Source of the DNA: a virus
Lineage: Duplodnaviria; Heunggongvirae; Uroviricota; Caudoviricetes
Length of the DNA stretch: 24,737 nt
Strand: one strand, 5' to 3'
Virus record (IMG/VR): IMGVR_UViG_2718218399_000013
Position numbers and translations under genes: made by a program. Position 1 is the stretch's first letter. Every line of letters begins with the position of its first letter. Of this stretch, positions 4,112-13,771 are shown in pieces. The notes under the pieces are model-generated. The model was not told the DNA's origin and made no database searches. It was given only the letters and a program-made list of their open reading frames with translations.

Positions 4112-4435
4112 TTAGTGCAGCGCTGGTTTGTTGAGGTGACGGGAACAAAGTTCATCCATGACCGTCATTCCGAGCAGTGAGAGAACCGGACAGGCTTTAA
4201 GCGGCCCCGACTCCATCAGATCCGAAAGCAACGCGCAGGCAATTTCCAGCCCTCTTTGCTGCCCATGCTGGCGCAGATAGAACCCTTCCAGCTCGCGGGC
4301 TATGGCATCTTCAAGTTCAGCGAGCGTCAGGCCGGAATAACGTTCCTGATGATTGCTTAGAGCCAGCCAGGCACAGGCAACGGCACGGCGATACAGAGCG
4401 GCACGAAGTGCCAGAAGAGATTCACAGCATATCAT
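4112..4435 (-). CDS. small protein (107 aa) immediately upstream of alpha; position of P4 left-operon accessory genes (Cnr-like position)
   Basis: ORF translationally coupled to neighbours (1-nt overlap with the upstream ORF, 13-nt gap to alpha containing the alpha RBS); GC-rich like the P4-like core; function not recognisable. Confidence 0.5.
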
Positions 4436-6400: not shown

Positions 6401-7153
6401 ATGACAATCCCAGAACAGAACAATAACCCGATCGTTGAAATTTCTATCCCTGTTTCGACGCAACAGGCGCTTGAGAAAGTGAATGCCACCAAATCTGCAT
6501 GGCTTGAAGCACGTCGTCAGCAAAAAGCGGCAGCGGATAATATTGCGACAATCCGCCAGCGCCGCGCTGAAATGGAAGCCACGACGAACGCCCTGAATGA
6601 GGAGTGGCGCACGCTATTTCGTGAAAGTCAGGGCGTAGTCTCAAAGGAAATGAAAAAACTGCGCACGGAAATTGCGCTGGGACGAGAAACGCTTGAGGAT
6701 TTTGATGAGCTGCTGGCGGCTCAGGAAAGCGAAAATGCACTTTTGCCGCAGGAGGCTGCGGAATTAGCCGGAAAGTATATCCACGCGCACGACACCCTTG
6801 TGGGTATTCGCGCAAAACAAATCTGGGAAGATTTTATGCAGTCGCATGGAAAAGCACTAATCCAGACACTAAGCCTGCTCAAATCAACAATGGGCAGGGA
6901 AGCCAGCGCAGTTGTCGGTGTGGTGCATTCAGTTAATGACCCGGACACACTGCTGAAAGATTTTATTCATAAACATATCACCAGACCGGCTCTGACTAAC
7001 GATGCGATGCCCGAACAGGACCCCGTGTTTAAACTGGCGGGAGTTGCCCCGGATTATGCGGCCCGTCTGGATTTCAGTAATAAACTCTCTCCAGCAGCTA
7101 TGCATAAAATGAAGGTTCGTCAGGAACGTGCTGAGAAGGAGAAAGCAGTATGA
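6401..7153 (+). CDS. first gene of the satellite late operon, 250 aa; Sid-like (capsid size determination) by position and size
   Basis: ORF with ATG start downstream of the TGT-N12-ACA dyad; charged, helix-rich composition; stop overlaps the next gene start (ATGA); assignment positional only. Confidence 0.55.
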   Translation: MTIPEQNNNPIVEISIPVSTQQALEKVNATKSAWLEARRQQKAAADNIATIRQRRAEMEATTNALNEEWRTLFRESQGVVSKEMKKLRTEIALGRETLEDFDELLAAQESENALLPQEAAELAGKYIHAHDTLVGIRAKQIWEDFMQSHGKALIQTLSLLKSTMGREASAVVGVVHSVNDPDTLLKDFIHKHITRPALTNDAMPEQDPVFKLAGVAPDYAARLDFSNKLSPAAMHKMKVRQERAEKEKAV

Positions 7154-7701
7154 TGGCCCGAGTCACTCCAGACCAAGCGCTTATCAGTTTTAGAAATGCC
7201 CGTATTCTGTGGGCTGGACATAGTGAGAGCCGAAAAGCCGTTGAACAACAGATAGAATCACTCCTCACTGCCATGGAAAAACCAGCAGATTATGCTCGAC
7301 AGCTCGAATTACAGCGGGAACATCTGGATGTGCTGAAATGGCAAATTAACTGTGCTGCGCGCGAATGCATTTACTCGCAGCATCAACTGATGGAGGCCTG
7401 CACAGAAGACGCTCTCAGCAATTTTATGCAGGCGAATGGAGCAGCCCTGACATCTGCACTGGCTCCGTTCCTGAAGGGGCGCGGAGGGGTTGACGTTGCG
7501 TCCCGTATATTACGCAATGCTCTGGTTCGCCAGCTGGCAATAACACCGCCTGAAATTGCCGGGGATTATCGTATGATTCTGGATGAATCCGGTGTGATGC
7601 CTGACCCCATGATGGTTCGTGATTGCCAGAGCTCTTACACCCCTGCACAACAACTGCGCTTTCAGCAACGTCTGGATTACATTAACGGCATGCAGGAGTA
7701 A
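7150..7701 (+). CDS. Psu-like protein, 183 aa
   Basis: Translationally coupled to the upstream gene; size and segments such as KWQINCAARECIYSQHQ and FMQANGAALTSALAPFLKG resemble my recollection of P4 Psu; not verified by alignment. Confidence 0.5.
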   Translation: MMARVTPDQALISFRNARILWAGHSESRKAVEQQIESLLTAMEKPADYARQLELQREHLDVLKWQINCAARECIYSQHQLMEACTEDALSNFMQANGAALTSALAPFLKGRGGVDVASRILRNALVRQLAITPPEIAGDYRMILDESGVMPDPMMVRDCQSSYTPAQQLRFQQRLDYINGMQE

Positions 7702-7706
7702 TATTA

Positions 7707-7979
7707 ATGGCACTTAAATGTCCCGAATGCGGTACGACGGCACACGCCAGAACCTCCGCCTATGAAGCACCATCGGTTAAACGCTCATGGTATCAGTGCC
7801 AGAATCTTGAATGTTCCTACACATTTACCGCACTGGAAAGTGTGGATACGATAATCATGAAGCCCCGGCGCAATGAACAGGAATCAGAGAAAGCACAAAT
7901 GCCGGAAAAACAACAGCAAACTCTCAATCGCTATGGCTCCGCGTCAAAGCTGTCAAGCCGTCAGCAAATTCCTGTCTGA
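7707..7979 (+). CDS. Ogr/Delta-family zinc-finger late transcriptional activator, 90 aa
   Basis: N-terminal CPECGTTAHARTS ... YQCQNLECSYTF matches the Ogr/Delta C-x2-C ... C-x4-C zinc finger; RBS aggag upstream of the ATG. Confidence 0.8.
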   Translation: MALKCPECGTTAHARTSAYEAPSVKRSWYQCQNLECSYTFTALESVDTIIMKPRRNEQESEKAQMPEKQQQTLNRYGSASKLSSRQQIPV

Positions 7980-8215: not shown

Positions 8216-8388
8216 GTTAGATTATAAAATATCAAACGCCGGTGAGATCCATTATTGTGGAACCACCCGAAGGAAGTGTAGAGGCGAAAGTACCCAAAAT
8301 AATTTTGCAAATTATTTAGAAATGAACTGAGCGCTCGAAACGAAATATAATTTCGAGCACCCCAATTAGCAGTTATATTTTTAATGTA

Positions 8389-8955
8389 TTAAACAGGATA
8401 AAAACCAGAGCTTCCATTCTTATTTAAGTTATGGATTTTATTTGCATCATTAATTTTTATTTGGAACGTCGGACCTTTATTCTCAAGAATTACAATCTGG
8501 AAATTATAGTCCCTTTTGATTAATGCGTGATAAAATGAATCACTGAGACTGACGCTATTAACATCCGATAGAGAACCCCCTCTATCTTTATCAAAGTGCG
8601 TCACTAATGGACTATCAAGCACAACAAATCCAATGAATGGATTCCCTTTTCTTGATAAAAATTCCGCAAAGCAAATGGTAAATATAGCATGCATTACTGC
8701 ACGGGTACCTTTACCAAACATTCCTCGGCGTTTCCCATTGATATTAAAGTCATATGTATCTTCGTCAAATCGCACTTTGTTATCTTTAGAATTTTCAAAA
8801 TTTATATCATTCAAAAAGTCTTGCATCGCTATTTCTATATCATACAAATCAGCTACTGTTAAGGAGTCAAAGTCCTCGGCGGAGTATTTAAGTTCGTCAA
8901 CATCATCTTCTTTATCTTGTAATGAAGATAGAATGCTATGTTTTGTGTGATCCAT
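8389..8955 (-). CDS. C-terminal ABC-ATPase head fragment (Walker B / D-loop region), 188 aa; third piece of an SMC/Rad50-like ATPase
   Basis: FGKGTRAVMHAIF (degenerate signature-like) about 20 aa before GFVVLDSPL (Walker-B-like); start ATG overlaps the upstream stop as TAATG; AT-rich. Confidence 0.5.
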   Translation of the reverse strand: MDHTKHSILSSLQDKEDDVDELKYSAEDFDSLTVADLYDIEIAMQDFLNDINFENSKDNKVRFDEDTYDFNINGKRRGMFGKGTRAVMHAIFTICFAEFLSRKGNPFIGFVVLDSPLVTHFDKDRGGSLSDVNSVSLSDSFYHALIKRDYNFQIVILENKGPTFQIKINDANKIHNLNKNGSSGFYPV

Positions 8956-9545
8956 TAAAAGATTGTCTTTATATTCATAAAGTGATTCAAGAGATGAATG
9001 TATTGTTTTATATTTTTATCTTCTAACGTCTTAAAATCACTTTTTTCTGATTGATAAATTTCATTAACATCATTTTTTCTTAACATAATTAATTCATGTT
9101 CGCGAACATTAGATCCGATTGATTCAATTAATCCTTTCAGCTGGCTTTTGATTTTCAATTTTTCTGCATTACACGACAAAAAACAATCATCATATGATAT
9201 TTCATTTTCTTTTTTTTGCGGTGTATTACAGAACTCACAATAAATATCTGCAAAATTATTTAAATAGAAATTCGCCTGTGATACAACATCTATTCTTTGT
9301 AGATCTATAAAGTATTGGTCTTTAAGAAGACTAAATCTTTCAATGAGTAATGATAAGTATTTTTCCCTGTCACTGATTGAATATAATTCATCACTTAACT
9401 CTTTTAATAATTGCTTCTTATCATCAAGTGCATCAACAATACCTTTCAATATATCTTTCGATGATTCAATATCTTGCTCTACTTTCTCAAGTTCTCTTGA
9501 AACAATGACTTGATCATATTCAGGATAAATTAATTGCGCTTTCAA
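8955..9545 (-). CDS. coiled-coil middle segment of an SMC/Rad50-like ATPase with a possible zinc-hook motif, 196 aa; no ATG start, in frame with the upstream ORF across a single TAA
   Basis: Heptad-rich charged sequence; Cys cluster YCEFCNTPQKK...DCFLSCN; track start is TTG, first internal Met is near the C-terminus; upstream ORF is in the same frame, separated only by TAA at 9576-9578. Confidence 0.45.
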   Translation of the reverse strand: MKAQLIYPEYDQVIVSRELEKVEQDIESSKDILKGIVDALDDKKQLLKELSDELYSISDREKYLSLLIERFSLLKDQYFIDLQRIDVVSQANFYLNNFADIYCEFCNTPQKKENEISYDDCFLSCNAEKLKIKSQLKGLIESIGSNVREHELIMLRKNDVNEIYQSEKSDFKTLEDKNIKQYIHLLNHFMNIKTIF

Positions 9546-9575
9546 TTCCTCATAAATATTTGCAATTTGATTTTT

Positions 9576-10208
9576 TTAAAAATATCTTGCTTTTTTATTT
9601 GGTTTTTCTGCTAAGGAGTTAGTATCATCTCTCTGAGTTAAAAGGAATTTAAATTCAGACTTTCTTTTTGTCTCCTCGCTAGGAATATCAGAAAGAATTA
9701 ACGACTTCTCAGTTAACACTCTTAATTCATCAATACAAAAAAATTCAAAAACATTATTAAGATTAAATTTATGAAGAGTATTACTTAAGTTTGTTCTTAC
9801 TTTAGCCTCTTTGAAATTCAACCTACCATAAAAGTATGATGAAAAACTCTTTTTAGACGAAGCACTTTTGGAAAAAACCATCAACAGATTAGCTTCACTA
9901 ACATTTTCAATGCTCGAATCATATAATCTGTAATGGGCGCTATCCTGAAGAGACCTCTCAATTGTCATTACCCTACCTTGAAAATTAAATTCCAGATAGG
10001 CTAAATCATAACCTTGAGCATGATCGATATCTTTATTTTTTAGTTTTTCACTCCCTAATAAATATCGAATCAAATAATATATGTATGTTTTTCCAGAGTC
10101 AGAACCACCATATAAAATAGTCAATTTAGAACCAAATTCAATTATAGCATCTAATTTATTGAATCCGGTTACCTTTATTTTTCTGAACGTAAAAAAATTG
10201 TCATTCAT
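9576..10208 (-). CDS. N-terminal ABC-ATPase head (Walker A) of an SMC/RecF/Rad50-like protein, about 210 aa before an in-frame TAA
   Basis: FTFRKIKVTGFNKLDAIIEFGSKLTILYGGSDSGKTYIYYLI is a typical ABC/SMC N-terminal P-loop; candidate ATG starts at 10208 or 10226 (the track uses TTG at 10235); ends at TAA 9576-9578 with the next ORF in frame. Confidence 0.6.
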   Translation of the reverse strand: MNDNFFTFRKIKVTGFNKLDAIIEFGSKLTILYGGSDSGKTYIYYLIRYLLGSEKLKNKDIDHAQGYDLAYLEFNFQGRVMTIERSLQDSAHYRLYDSSIENVSEANLLMVFSKSASSKKSFSSYFYGRLNFKEAKVRTNLSNTLHKFNLNNVFEFFCIDELRVLTEKSLILSDIPSEETKRKSEFKFLLTQRDDTNSLAEKPNKKARYF

Positions 10209-10659
10209 AATTAAATTCCATATCATATTTGCCAATTTTATTTTTTATAATTGATTGCAACTGCTCATCAGGAATATCACTATATAACTTAACCACCAAA
10301 TTTATATTATGCTCCATCTGCGCAACATATTCATTATGTAGAGAATTTGTAAATGCATATGTTTTTTCAGAAGCTTTATATACAAAACCACGATGTGTAT
10401 AAATTTTTGAGGCTAGTTCATAGCCTTGCAACAAAGCCAATGATTCTAAAACAATCTCTCGTTTTAGGGCTAACTGAGCATCTCTACGGGGTATTGGAGG
10501 ATGAAGACTAATCTCTTCAGGTAAAAAATCCTTAAGATTTACTAAAATAAAATCAAAACAAATAAGCCGTTCAAGGCTTAATGAAGAAGGATAAATAGCG
10601 ACGAGCACTTTCGCCATTCGACATGCCACTTCTAAACTTGAATTATAAATTCTAACCAT
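10201..10659 (-). CDS. hypothetical small protein, 152 aa from the ATG at 10659; candidate small subunit of the cargo system
   Basis: ATG overlaps the upstream stop (TAATG); its stop lies 5 nt after the downstream ATG at 10208; AT-rich; no recognisable motif. Confidence 0.5.
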   Translation of the reverse strand: MVRIYNSSLEVACRMAKVLVAIYPSSLSLERLICFDFILVNLKDFLPEEISLHPPIPRRDAQLALKREIVLESLALLQGYELASKIYTHRGFVYKASEKTYAFTNSLHNEYVAQMEHNINLVVKLYSDIPDEQLQSIIKNKIGKYDMEFNYE

Positions 10660-11276
10660 TATCTCACCGTCCAAATTACTTCACCATCATTAACCAAATG
10701 ATGGCATATTCCTTTTTTATCATTTGCTTCACATATTTTTGATAGTACTGAATGTGCAATTGGTGTCAGAACAGCCTGCTTCAAGACTGCATTACACCTA
10801 ATAAATGCATAATTATGGTCTTCATAAAAGACGGGTTCAATTGAAGATGAAATGTAACATTTCAATGCTTTGAATACATCATCTTTAAATACTTCGCGGA
10901 CAAAAACCTCAAGCGAAGATGCAAAATAAAAATCATTTCTACTATTATTAAAGTGTCGTCTGTATGGATCATCAAGCTCTAAGAAAGAACTATAAGTTTT
11001 ATTTCCATGCTCTGAATAGGCTTGAAGCAGTGCATTAACATATACAGACTCTTTTTTTGAATTGTATGTTGGAATTTCATTTGGAGGGATTCTCACGACA
11101 TACAGCTCGTTAAAGTACTTAAAATAAAGGTGTGTATTTGCAATATCATTTAAAATCAATGATAAGGGTAGAGAGTAAAAAATACTAAAATCAAAATCCT
11201 CAATATATTTTTTTATTTCATCATCTAATGGAATATCAATCTTTTTAGTTATTTTTTTGAAATTGCTGAATCCCAT
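10659..11276 (-). CDS. hypothetical protein, 205 aa; possibly the C-terminal domain of the upstream Mrr-like nuclease ORF
   Basis: ATG lies 28 nt inside the upstream ORF with no clear RBS; one extra A in the A7 run at the junction would fuse the two ORFs in frame. Confidence 0.45.
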   Translation of the reverse strand: MGFSNFKKITKKIDIPLDDEIKKYIEDFDFSIFYSLPLSLILNDIANTHLYFKYFNELYVVRIPPNEIPTYNSKKESVYVNALLQAYSEHGNKTYSSFLELDDPYRRHFNNSRNDFYFASSLEVFVREVFKDDVFKALKCYISSSIEPVFYEDHNYAFIRCNAVLKQAVLTPIAHSVLSKICEANDKKGICHHLVNDGEVIWTVR

Positions 11277-11665
11277 GAATCAAGGACTGCTTTTTTAAGC
11301 TCGTTTTTATTTTTCAATAAATTAGAAAATGTAGTAGATAAATCATAGGGTGCCACAAAAAAGTACTTCTGAGGGATGGGATAATCACCATTCAGAGTAA
11401 AATAGATAAGTTTTCCAAACTCAACTACAACATCAGAGAACCCTAAACTTTTTTTGTACAGTTTGCATTGATAATTATCCCAAGAATAACCTTCTACGTT
11501 AGGATCCGATTTATATCCAACAACGTCTCTACCTTTATCTCCAGCTCCTCCCAAACGTTCGCTCCACGGGTAATCATCTGATTTACAGACAATAAGCCAA
11601 TCATGGACAAATACCTCCCATTGTTCATCATCCCATGTCAATATTTCCGAAAGTGGTTGAGACAC
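11249..11665 (-). CDS. Mrr-like PD-(D/E)xK restriction-endonuclease-fold protein, 138 aa; first gene of the cargo operon
   Basis: GGAGDKGRDVVGY ... YQCKLYKK matches the Mrr catalytic-domain pattern (G-x-G-D-x-G-x-D ... Q-x-K); GTG start with aaggag RBS embedded in the 3' end of int (int stop 3 nt upstream). Confidence 0.6.
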   Translation of the reverse strand: MSQPLSEILTWDDEQWEVFVHDWLIVCKSDDYPWSERLGGAGDKGRDVVGYKSDPNVEGYSWDNYQCKLYKKSLGFSDVVVEFGKLIYFTLNGDYPIPQKYFFVAPYDLSTTFSNLLKNKNELKKAVLDSWDSAISKK

Positions 11666-11668
11666 AAA

Positions 11669-12850
11669 TTAACTCCTTTTTAGTCTTTCAAATATCAAAT
11701 TACTGTACCAGTCCATCATAGACTTCCTTCCACTAAAATATTGAGCATGGTTATAAGTCCCCCTAATAGAATTTTTATCTACATGAGCCAACTGGATTTC
11801 AATCCAAGCACTCTCAAAACCTTGCTCATGCAGGATTGTAGAAAGGGTATGACGAAAACCATGTCCAGTGACTTTTCCTCCATACCCAATACGCTTAATG
11901 GCTTGATTTATACTCGCTTCGCTCATTGGCCTATTCGGATCGTTCCGCCCTGGAAAAACATAACGATAGTTCCCTGTCATGATCTTGAGTTCATTGAGTA
12001 AATCTACCGCTTGAGATGATAAGGGCACAAGATGTGGCCTACGCATTTTCATCCTTTCAGCAGGAATTTCCCAAATAGCGTTATCCAGATCAAATTCTTG
12101 CCATAATGCCGCGCGTAATTCGATGGTTCTCACACCCGTAATCATCAGTAATTTCGTGGCTATCTGGACAAGCTTACTCCCGGAGTAACCCTCTAAGGCA
12201 CGTAGAAAATCAGGTATCTCATCAGCTTTTAGGAATGGGAAATGATTGGATTGGTGTACTTCGAGAGCGCTGGAGAGATCAGCCGCAGGATTGTACTCCG
12301 CCCTACCCGTTGCAATTGCGTAGCGAAACACTTCGGAGCAACGCTGCCGCACTTTGCGCATTTTCTCCAACGCACCACGTTTCTCAATTTTACGCAGAAC
12401 GTTCAGCAGCTCTAGCGGTTTAATCTCTCCCACAGGCCTTGTTCCGACATAAGGAAAAATGTCGTTCTTAAACGCTTCCATGATGTCTGATGCATATCCC
12501 GCCGACCATTTAGCAGATTTAAGTTGATGCCACTCTCTGGCTATCTTTTCGAAGGCGTTCTCTGACTCTGTTTGCATAGCTAGCTTTTGCTCTTTTCGAA
12601 CCTCACTAGGGTTCTTTCCTTCTGCCACAAGTTTTCGAGCTTCATCACGACGGGAACGAGCATCGGCAAGGGTGATCGTTGGGTAAACACCAAGCGAGAT
12701 CATTTTGGGTTTGCCGGCATAGCGATAGCGGAACCGCCAACTCTTGCTTCCATTAGGTTCTATAAGTAATGACAACCCTAGCCCATCTCCAAATGTATAG
12801 GCTTTAGCTTCAGGCTTAGCGCGGCGAATCTGCATATCGTTTAAAGGCAT
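11669..12850 (-). CDS. P4-family tyrosine integrase, 393 aa
   Basis: N-terminus MPLNDMQIRRAKPEAKAYTFGDGLGLSLLIEPNGSKSWRFRY typical of P4/CP4-type integrases; C-terminal GHGFRHT ... Y catalytic region; adjacent to a partial thrW copy; the track's 12901 start adds 17 Cys-rich residues. Confidence 0.85.
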   Translation of the reverse strand: MPLNDMQIRRAKPEAKAYTFGDGLGLSLLIEPNGSKSWRFRYRYAGKPKMISLGVYPTITLADARSRRDEARKLVAEGKNPSEVRKEQKLAMQTESENAFEKIAREWHQLKSAKWSAGYASDIMEAFKNDIFPYVGTRPVGEIKPLELLNVLRKIEKRGALEKMRKVRQRCSEVFRYAIATGRAEYNPAADLSSALEVHQSNHFPFLKADEIPDFLRALEGYSGSKLVQIATKLLMITGVRTIELRAALWQEFDLDNAIWEIPAERMKMRRPHLVPLSSQAVDLLNELKIMTGNYRYVFPGRNDPNRPMSEASINQAIKRIGYGGKVTGHGFRHTLSTILHEQGFESAWIEIQLAHVDKNSIRGTYNHAQYFSGRKSMMDWYSNLIFERLKRS

Positions 12851-13012
12851 GTGTATAGGAATCCAGACCGAACAGGAACATATACACAATCCTATACACA
12901 TTCAGTACCGGATTCTACTGGATGGTTACGGACTACTATGGACTTAAAAGAATAAAAAATGTTATAAATCAGAGATTTTATGGACTAATACGGACGTTTG
13001 AGGAAGTTGAGA

Positions 13013-13058
13013 TGGTGCCGATAATAGGAGTCGAACCTACGACCTTCGCATTACGAAT
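13013..13058 (-). repeat. direct repeat: 46-nt copy of the thrW 3' end (att core) between the two elements
   Basis: 13013-13058 is identical to 23294-23339 (tggtgccgataataggagtcgaacctacgaccttcgcattacgaat); the 5' half of the tRNA is absent. Confidence 0.85.
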
Positions 13059-13405
13059 TATAAGAATCCGCTTCTAATTCAAAGCATTACCCCATCAACA
13101 CTGCGCTCACACGTCCCACCACATCAAAACATGTAAAGCCTTGCAAGCCATTGCGAGGCCTTATGTGTCTCAGTTTTGTCCCACCTTGTATTACGACTTG
13201 CATAGCCAATGAAGATAAACGTGACGACAAACGGCGCAGCAGTCTTCTTTTCTTTCACGACTTCTCCAGCATGCATACCTTTCTGCCATGACTGAAGTGA
13301 ATGCCTGTTATGAGCAAGGATTGGCCCAGATGAATCGCCCTGGACTGTTGCGATCGTGAAGCCATAGACTGGGCCGCAAGCACGGGAGGTTACGATAAAG
13401 CGACA

Positions 13406-13771
13406 GTGCAGGATGTCATGTTAGGAGCGATAGAAAAACGCTTTGGCGATAAAGTACCGGAACAGTCCATCCAGTGGCTGACAGATAACGGTTCAGCGTA
13501 TAGAGCGCATGAAACACGGCAGTTCGCCAGAGAGTTGAATCTGGAGCCCTGCACAACGGCAATCAGCAGTCCTCAGAGTAATGGAATTGCAGAAAGGTTC
13601 GTGAAAACGATGAAGGAAGACTACATCGCGTTCATGCCGAAACCGAATGTAAGAACGGCATTGCATAATCTTGCAGTGGCGATCGAACATTACAATGAAA
13701 ACCATCCGCACAGTGCGTTGGGTTATCGCTCTCCGCGAGAATATCGACGTCAGCGGGTAACGTTAACTTAA
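13406..13771 (+). pseudogene. IS3-family (IS2-like) transposase, C-terminal DDE-domain fragment
   Basis: [25 protein letters not shown] ... [19 protein letters not shown] ... [15 protein letters not shown] resembles the IS2 orfB C-terminus; no intact upstream reading frame; IR-like sequence gataccccccctgtctggaaataagggggcaa follows at about 13775-13806. Confidence 0.7.

Follow-up and report, generated by a model that had tools for sequence, protein, structure and literature searches.

Genes at the locus

We examined the junction of two overlapping open reading frames (ORFs) in a stretch of viral DNA of 24,737 nucleotides (nt), IMG/VR record IMGVR_UViG_2718218399_000013, which we call the window; it is 100% identical to Escherichia coli O157:H7 genomes, including EDL933, in the thrW region. 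An earlier reading of the bare sequence (the original prediction) had drawn attention to an Mrr-like ORF that stops directly after a run of seven A, and had left three explanations side by side, namely phase variation of the tract, decay of the gene, and a homopolymer error. We conclude with high confidence that the two ORFs are one gene, lmuA, of a three-gene Lamassu anti-phage system with the order lmuA-lmuC-lmuB, and that they are separated by a fixed homopolymer frameshift in a decaying defence system, not by a switch. The operon, all of it on the minus strand, contains the following features (lengths in amino acids, aa).

10659-11665, minus strand: lmuA, predicted pseudogene of the Lamassu/ABC-three component (ABC-3C) effector; Mrr-like PD-(D/E)xK nuclease domain at the N terminus and CTD6 domain at the C terminus, the gene being interrupted by the loss of 1 nt
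11249-11665, minus strand: ORF1, nuclease half of lmuA; 138 aa, GTG start, stop TAA at 11249-11251
11252-11258, minus strand: A7 run (T7 on the plus strand), the frameshift site, directly before the ORF1 TAA
10659-11276, minus strand: ORF2, CTD6 half of lmuA in the -1 frame; 205 aa, ATG at 11274-11276
10201-10659, minus strand: lmuC, ABC-3C middle component 2; 152 aa, apparently intact (Pfam MC2 PF20288, E=6e-30; PADLOC LmuC, E=2.5e-36)
8389-10208, minus strand: lmuB, predicted pseudogene of an SMC-like ABC ATPase, in three ORFs (9576-10208, 8955-9545 and 8389-8955)
9576-9578, minus strand: nonsense codon TAA in lmuB (Leu211, TTA to TAA), specific to O157:H7-type genomes
9013-9017, minus strand: A5 run in lmuB, putative site of a second 1-nt deletion (A6 to A5) and of a frame change

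The junction itself is as the original prediction had described it, with the A7 run followed by TAA at the coordinates given above. ORF1 has an AAGGAG Shine-Dalgarno sequence as its ribosome-binding site (RBS) at 11673-11678, 7 nt before the GTG, and its 3' end reads GAT TCA TGG GAT TCA GCA ATT TCA AAA AAA TAA. ORF2 begins, as had been noted, 28 nt before ORF1 ends. Its ATG straddles two codons, taking A from Ser130 (TCA) and TG from Trp131 (TGG), a residue that is invariant in the family, and it is incidental, simply the first ATG of the shifted frame. No purine-rich Shine-Dalgarno sequence precedes it (the upstream sequence is ...GCAGTCCTTGATTC), in line with the earlier remark that a clear RBS was lacking, and efficient translation of the 205-aa ORF seems unlikely.

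Adding one A to the run gives an uninterrupted ORF of 335 aa, close to the size that had been anticipated, in which the A8 state reads in frame as TCA AAA AAA ATA (S-K-K-I). An A7 run by itself is not unusual here (there are four in the 1007-nt, AT-rich lmuA and 19 A7/T7 runs in the whole window); what exceeds chance is the position of the break in homology, described below.

A Lamassu system of the ABC-3C type

The repaired 335-aa product matches the PADLOC LmuA profile PDLC03852 over residues 3-333 (E=8.4e-89) and the Pfam CTD6 family PF20282 at residues 206-332 (E=2e-29). Both LmuA domains are present in the window by homology, in different frames and not on a single polypeptide. The lmuC gene lies between lmuA and lmuB, as the Lamassu order requires; the pieces of lmuB, which in Lamassu encodes an SMC-like ABC ATPase of about 600 aa with a coiled-coil insert, match Pfam AAA_23 and DUF3732, and intact LmuB homologues match PADLOC LmuB PDLC03863 with E about 1e-118. 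Two of these genes are called "ABC-three component system" proteins by the Prokaryotic Genome Annotation Pipeline (PGAP).

The designation of the first domain as an Mrr-like nuclease, to which the original prediction had added a C-terminal domain, appears to be right, the Mrr part being supported at the level of the family. Pfam Mrr_cat gave no match at E<=1 to the O157 LmuA itself, and was matched by 5 of 23 relatives (best E=6.3e-6). ORF1 retains all of the family-invariant residues G42, D43, G45, D47, Q66, C67 and K68, among which D43, D47, Q66 and K68 correspond to the catalytic pattern D...D...QxK. As a stand-in for the O157 protein we modelled a 68%-identical Xenorhabdus LmuA with AlphaFold (predicted local distance difference test score, pLDDT, 92.7); its best structural matches were the solved LmuA chains 9nxx, 9ny1 and 9uxh, followed by the PD-(D/E)xK nucleases Cap4, MspJI and FokI. 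An NCBIfam scan returned no matches, and a profile search of PDB sequences returned nothing significant, no solved structure of the Mrr/CTD6 subtype being found by sequence.

In gene order, profile matches and carriage on a mobile element the locus resembles Lamassu-Mrr (LmuA-LmuC-LmuB, equivalent to ABC-3C with CTD6/MC2). Unlike the working systems of that kind, it has a frameshifted lmuA and an lmuB with both a nonsense codon and a frameshift, and it is best described as a non-functional remnant, that is, a predicted pseudogenised member of Lamassu. In solved Lamassu complexes the LmuA C-terminal domain anchors the effector to LmuB and LmuC and, once DNA ends have been sensed, brings about the tetramerisation by which the active site of the nuclease is formed (PMC12663957).

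Relatives encode lmuA as a single gene

Alignment with intact homologues, which had been proposed as a check, gave a consistent answer: they are single genes, and the break in frame falls inside the A run. Two separate genes with the same overlap, the arrangement that would have spoken against a fusion, did not appear. Among 120 of 157 relatives listed, all but three are 324-381 aa long and span 91% or more of the fused query. The three that do not are P0003 (the E. coli ORF2 fragment), P0104 (298 aa) and P0016, a truncated LmuA of 211 aa that belongs to another lineage and is cut short elsewhere in the protein. Likewise, in the best 80 of 542 relatives' loci from species-representative genomes, 80 of 80 match residues ~3-333 as a single segment.

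Two intact operons were especially useful for comparison. That of Xenorhabdus bovienii (L002) encodes LmuA, LmuC and LmuB of 335, 152 and 604 aa, and that of Serratia marcescens (L005) encodes proteins of 334, 159 and 609 aa and is found in the matching int-to-ogr interval of a P4-like element, adjoining proA. When the intact Xenorhabdus and Serratia LmuA proteins were compared with the window by tblastn, each gave two alignments meeting at residue 138, the frame changing between nt 11255 and 11252, inside the A run, with no residue lost or gained. Read with A8, the protein aligns colinearly and without gaps to the 335-aa LmuA of Xenorhabdus. The long A run is absent from more distant relatives, which read AGT AAA ATA, CAC AAA ATC, CGT AAA ATC or AAG GAA ATC at this point, all in frame. 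Because all relatives are in frame, we infer that A7 is the derived state and that the change went from A8 to A7.

These comparisons bear directly on the idea that the nuclease and CTD6 domains now serve as two proteins, either as a two-piece effector or as a stand-alone nuclease. Such a functional split would fit with both halves being open in all E. coli copies, with catalytic residues intact, and with their listing by PGAP as ordinary coding sequences. No split architecture was found among the relatives surveyed, however, and ORF2 has no RBS and an ATG that is an accident of Ser-Trp codons. In addition, the solved complexes need the C-terminal domain covalently linked for docking and tetramerisation (PMC12663957), the sensor LmuB is destroyed, and the operon substitutions described below are almost all non-synonymous. 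We therefore consider a functional split highly unlikely.

An in-frame A8 allele outside the complete E. coli genomes

The exact 335-aa fused product (P0123) is present on 434 contigs in a collection of 15 billion proteins. Fragments of orthologous systems labelled Salmonella enterica (P0129, P0134, P0154, P0164 and P0166) were also found, and in two of these, P0129 and P0134, the sequence ...SAISKKITKKIDI... runs across the junction. Apart from F83L in one of them, the LmuA fragments with the Salmonella label do not differ from the O157 sequence, and they continue in frame, whereas all of the fragments labelled E. coli are of the split type. Many LmuA and LmuB fragments at contig ends carry the Salmonella enterica label (serovars Brandenburg, Inverness and Richmond) and are identical or nearly identical to the O157 proteins without the O157 lesions, which suggests that P4-like cargo was recently shared between Salmonella and E. 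coli.

A gapped pattern search of IMG/VR found a single A8 contig, L023 (IMGVR_UViG_2923272612_000005). We rejected it as evidence for the A8 allele. It has dozens of homopolymer length differences and lacks ~3.9 kb, window position 4227 (on the alpha-primase side) being joined to 8145 with icd through ogr/delta missing; it looks like a low-accuracy assembly whose A8 is not trustworthy.

Multiple lesions in lmuB

The lmuB gene is interrupted in its own right. Compared with the window by tblastn, LmuB homologues of 601-609 aa align colinearly, pass an in-frame stop and then change frame. The stop is the TAA at codon 211, which is TTA in L013, L018 and O55:H7 strain CB9615, and Leu in Xenorhabdus and Klebsiella aerogenes. 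One A added at 9013-9017 restores ...LEDKKYKTIHS..., the same as in K. aerogenes LmuB at that place. With TAA returned to TTA and this A added, lmuB becomes an ORF of 606 aa that aligns without gaps and with 95.4% identity to the intact K. aerogenes LmuB P0162, and is identical to it at both repaired sites. LmuB of K. aerogenes, Xenorhabdus and Serratia, unlike that of O157, is uninterrupted.

Further lesions are found in particular sublineages. Several O157:H7 genomes (L009, L010, L012 and L016) have A7 in place of A8 at 9210-9217, and one O157:H7 genome, L015 (GCA_000155125.1), has an IS3-family insertion sequence (IS) element, at 4934-6147 of L015, in the first third of lmuB. The O55:H7 lmuB has changed from A6 to A5 at 9041-9046 and from T7 to T8 at 9737-9743 (window equivalents), and O55:H7 CB9615 (L107) has an independent nonsense mutation, Q214* (CAA to TAA; window equivalent 9569), 3 codons from the L211* site. 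This shows parallel decay of lmuB in the O55:H7 sister lineage. Because the A7 run of lmuA and the A5 run of lmuB are common to O55:H7 and O157:H7, these two lesions predate the split of the lineages, and the lmuB TAA came later. Between O55:H7 CB9615 and the window we counted 9 non-synonymous or nonsense changes versus 1 synonymous change in the operon, against 1 versus 2 in int, a contrast that is suggestive only (Fisher p=0.11).

Of the explanations first offered for the A7 run, it is the decayed gene that these observations favour, the homologues being single genes and lmuB carrying at least two more inactivating lesions.

The A7 state is fixed

To survey the tract in complete genomes we used an 81-nt probe centred on it, with thresholds of at least 80% coverage and at least 99% identity, the latter equivalent to zero mismatches or gaps over 81 nt. 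The locus is carried by 308 records in 307 complete E. coli genomes (O157:H7 and O55:H7), and all 308 have A7. Other probes in the operon gave a different picture: at the lmuB A8 run at 9210-9217 (81 nt), 240 records were as in the window and 68 differed; at 8970-9050, 290 were as in the window and 18 differed; and with a 96-nt probe at 9500-9595 that includes the lmuB stop codon, 294 of 308 were as in the window and 14 differed. The 68 variants at the lmuB A8 run indicate that the method is able to detect variants. A7 is likewise found in draft contigs, in 5 clean IMG/VR contigs and in 3 metagenome contigs, and the loci with identical LmuC that we inspected, the 24 blocks on the longest contigs, were all of the E. 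coli split type. A phage collection gave no match to the locus, and a plasmid collection gave one A7-type record only.

These counts address two of the explanations offered in the original prediction. According to the first, the true genome has A8, the gene is intact, and the frameshift is a homopolymer error of sequencing or assembly. Homopolymers are error-prone, and the IMG/VR contig L023 illustrates such errors, A8 at the tract included. Nevertheless, A7 in 308 of 308 records from many laboratories and platforms excludes sequencing error: the records are independent and span technologies, EDL933 has been sequenced several times, and the draft, IMG/VR and metagenome contigs agree. The residual probability of an error is, in our judgement, negligible.

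The second explanation, a phase-variable contingency locus, would have a toxic defence effector switching at high frequency between A7 (OFF) and A8 (ON). Several observations are in its favour: the lesion lies inside a homopolymer, an A8 allele with an identical protein exists in public assemblies, one fused product in an E14K background is found on a 2-kb contig, and homopolymer indels do happen in this operon. Like homopolymer contingency loci, the junction has an A run where the frames meet; unlike them, it shows no length polymorphism in 308 records, although the method sees variants elsewhere. The clean IMG/VR and metagenome contigs are all A7, the only readable A8 contig is full of homopolymer errors, and the named fragments that read through carry a Salmonella label and not an E. 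coli one. For a contingency tract in an enterobacterium with working mismatch repair, an A7 run is also short. Moreover, lmuB is broken at no fewer than two sites in every E. coli copy examined, so restoring lmuA alone would not restore the system, and an ON state of lmuA would be pointless. Phase variation, in short, did not find support, and we think it very improbable.

Programmed recoding is improbable

The A run could also, in principle, be a site of programmed recoding, at which -1 ribosomal frameshifting on A AAA AAA, or transcriptional slippage, yields a short nuclease and full LmuA in a set ratio. The sequence of the candidate -1 frameshift site at the lmuA junction is TTTCAAAAAAATAACT. 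It contains a perfect X XXY YYZ heptamer, A AAA AAA, at 11252-11258 in the zero frame with the stop directly after it, and the -1 frame is the frame of ORF2. In the form of the heptamer it is like the dnaX or IS3 A AAA AAG sites; unlike these, it has no stimulatory element and the site is not conserved. The downstream 102 nt have a minimum free energy (MFE) of -7.9 kcal/mol (z=+1.58), with 191 of 200 shuffles folding at least as well, and no GGAGG or other Shine-Dalgarno-like stimulator lies upstream. Relatives lack a conserved A run and are in frame, and the near-identical A8 allele is simply in frame as well. With lmuB broken, full-length LmuA would in any case be partnerless. We accordingly attach very little probability to recoding.

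The locus lies in a P4-like satellite at thrW

The operon is carried in what is recognizably the hotspot of a P4-like satellite, the genes following one another in the order int, lmuA-lmuC-lmuB, ogr/delta, psu, a sid-like gene and the alpha primase-helicase, with ogr-delta/psu at 7150-7979. The flanking features are these.

11669-12850, minus strand: P4-type tyrosine integrase, directly upstream of lmuA (Pfam Arm-DNA-bind_3, Phage_int_M and Phage_integrase; PGAP)
6401-7979, plus strand: P4 core genes sid-like, psu and ogr/delta, on the other side of the hotspot (PGAP; Psu and Ogr_Delta Pfam matches in identical loci)
8329-8362, minus strand: terminator-like hairpin after lmuB (consensus match only)

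P4-like satellites have their defence hotspot in the interval from psu to int (Rousset et al. 2022, PMC9122126), and the cargo described here occupies the same int-to-psu/ogr-delta slot as other cargo of that hotspot (PMC9122126; PMC13586616). Pseudogenes in P4 defence hotspots are reported to be rare (PMC13586616); the O157 locus is one such pseudogene, fixed in a whole pathogenic lineage. The P4 system of O157:H7 FRIK944 that Rousset et al. found inactive (PMC9122126) was considered as a possible report of this locus and rejected, as it is a cytidine deaminase system at a different locus.

A 47-nt direct repeat at 13012-13058 and 23293-23339 corresponds to the 3' end of the tRNA-Thr(CGU) gene thrW (23294-23369). 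The two copies bracket a lambda-like remnant, beyond which the P4-like satellite lies, and mark the attachment (att) sites of two elements in tandem. The satellite of locus L013 directly adjoins proA, with no lambda-like remnant. According to RefSeq, the remnant has pseudogenes of its own: a partial IS integrase-core ORF at 13337-13771 on the plus strand (from L001 15238-15672), and fragmented, frameshifted replication protein genes at ~19330-20260 on the minus strand (from L001 20929-22159). The operon was also seen on NZ_CP044147.1 (PLSDB, 46.9 kb, non-mobilizable) at 33270-36542, which is probably an unplaced or mis-binned chromosomal fragment, and twice in one chromosome record, NZ_CP089272.1.

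Strain Sakai has one P4-like prophage, Sp2, with an ogr homologue; it does not circularise or replicate, and it is not packaged (PMC2669165). The satellite described here is presumably Sp2. That it no longer excises or transfers is a likely reason for the fixation of the pseudogene.

A proposed course of decay

We propose that, in the common ancestor of O55:H7 and O157:H7, replication slippage removed one A from the A8 run in TCA AAA AAA ATA. This loss would have ended the nuclease domain after Lys138 and pushed the C-terminal domain out of frame. The 138-aa nuclease domain, without a C-terminal domain, could presumably be neither docked nor activated; the ORF with the CTD6 domain only, having no RBS, would be unlikely to be made; and without LmuB there would be no sensor. 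The lesion would have become fixed in the O55/O157 ancestor, and neutral decay would have followed. The satellite being immobile, its hotspot cargo could not be swapped. Later sublineages would then have added the indels, the second nonsense codon and the IS element. On this evidence from sequence the system is, in all likelihood, dead as a whole.

Several observations weigh against this interpretation. The A8 product of the 434 contigs is known as a protein only. A fused product of the O55 type (E14K) occurs on a single 2-kb ENA contig, where it could reflect a rare reversion or a fault of assembly. None of these ORFs is flagged as a pseudogene by PGAP. ORF1 keeps its catalytic motif and lmuC is apparently complete, so that some residual activity may persist. 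When six guessed repaired LmuB sequences were looked up exactly in the protein collection, none was present. Finally, the heptamer A AAA AAA with a stop directly after it has the form of a -1 slippery site and could give a trace of fused protein.

The decay of lmuA and lmuB need not have been neutral. Lamassu relatives such as DdmABC act against plasmids and replicating phage DNA. It is conceivable, though in our view unlikely, that inactivation was adaptive, the loss of lmuA and lmuB in the O55:H7 ancestor having removed an autoimmune or exclusion barrier. If this were true, the lineage would have been free to gather its unusually large load of lambdoid prophages (including those encoding Stx) and pO157. 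A weaker variant of this unlikely reading has low-level -1 slippage on A AAA AAA still yielding traces of full-length LmuA that keep a residual role.

Implications for O157:H7 genomes and defence surveys

There are precedents for Lamassu with an Mrr effector, for P4 hotspots and for pseudogenes made by homopolymer frameshifts, and no new mechanism is revealed by the fixed frameshift in lmuA. What may be new is on a smaller scale: the recognition that the RefSeq fragments are two pseudogenes, the description of a dead Lamassu system in O157:H7 and O55:H7 whose decay can be traced, and a rare example of a pseudogene in a P4 hotspot.

The practical consequences are chiefly for annotation. RefSeq lists five ORFs (138, 205, 210, 196 and 188 aa) as ordinary proteins in hundreds of O157:H7 genomes, and these should be annotated as two pseudogenes, lmuA and lmuB. 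Censuses of defence systems that count hidden Markov model (HMM) matches could mistakenly include O157:H7 among the carriers of Lamassu. To revive the system, three single-base repairs should be enough. For the biology of the lineage, the locus offers a clean, datable case of a defence system decaying in place within an immobilised P4-like satellite.

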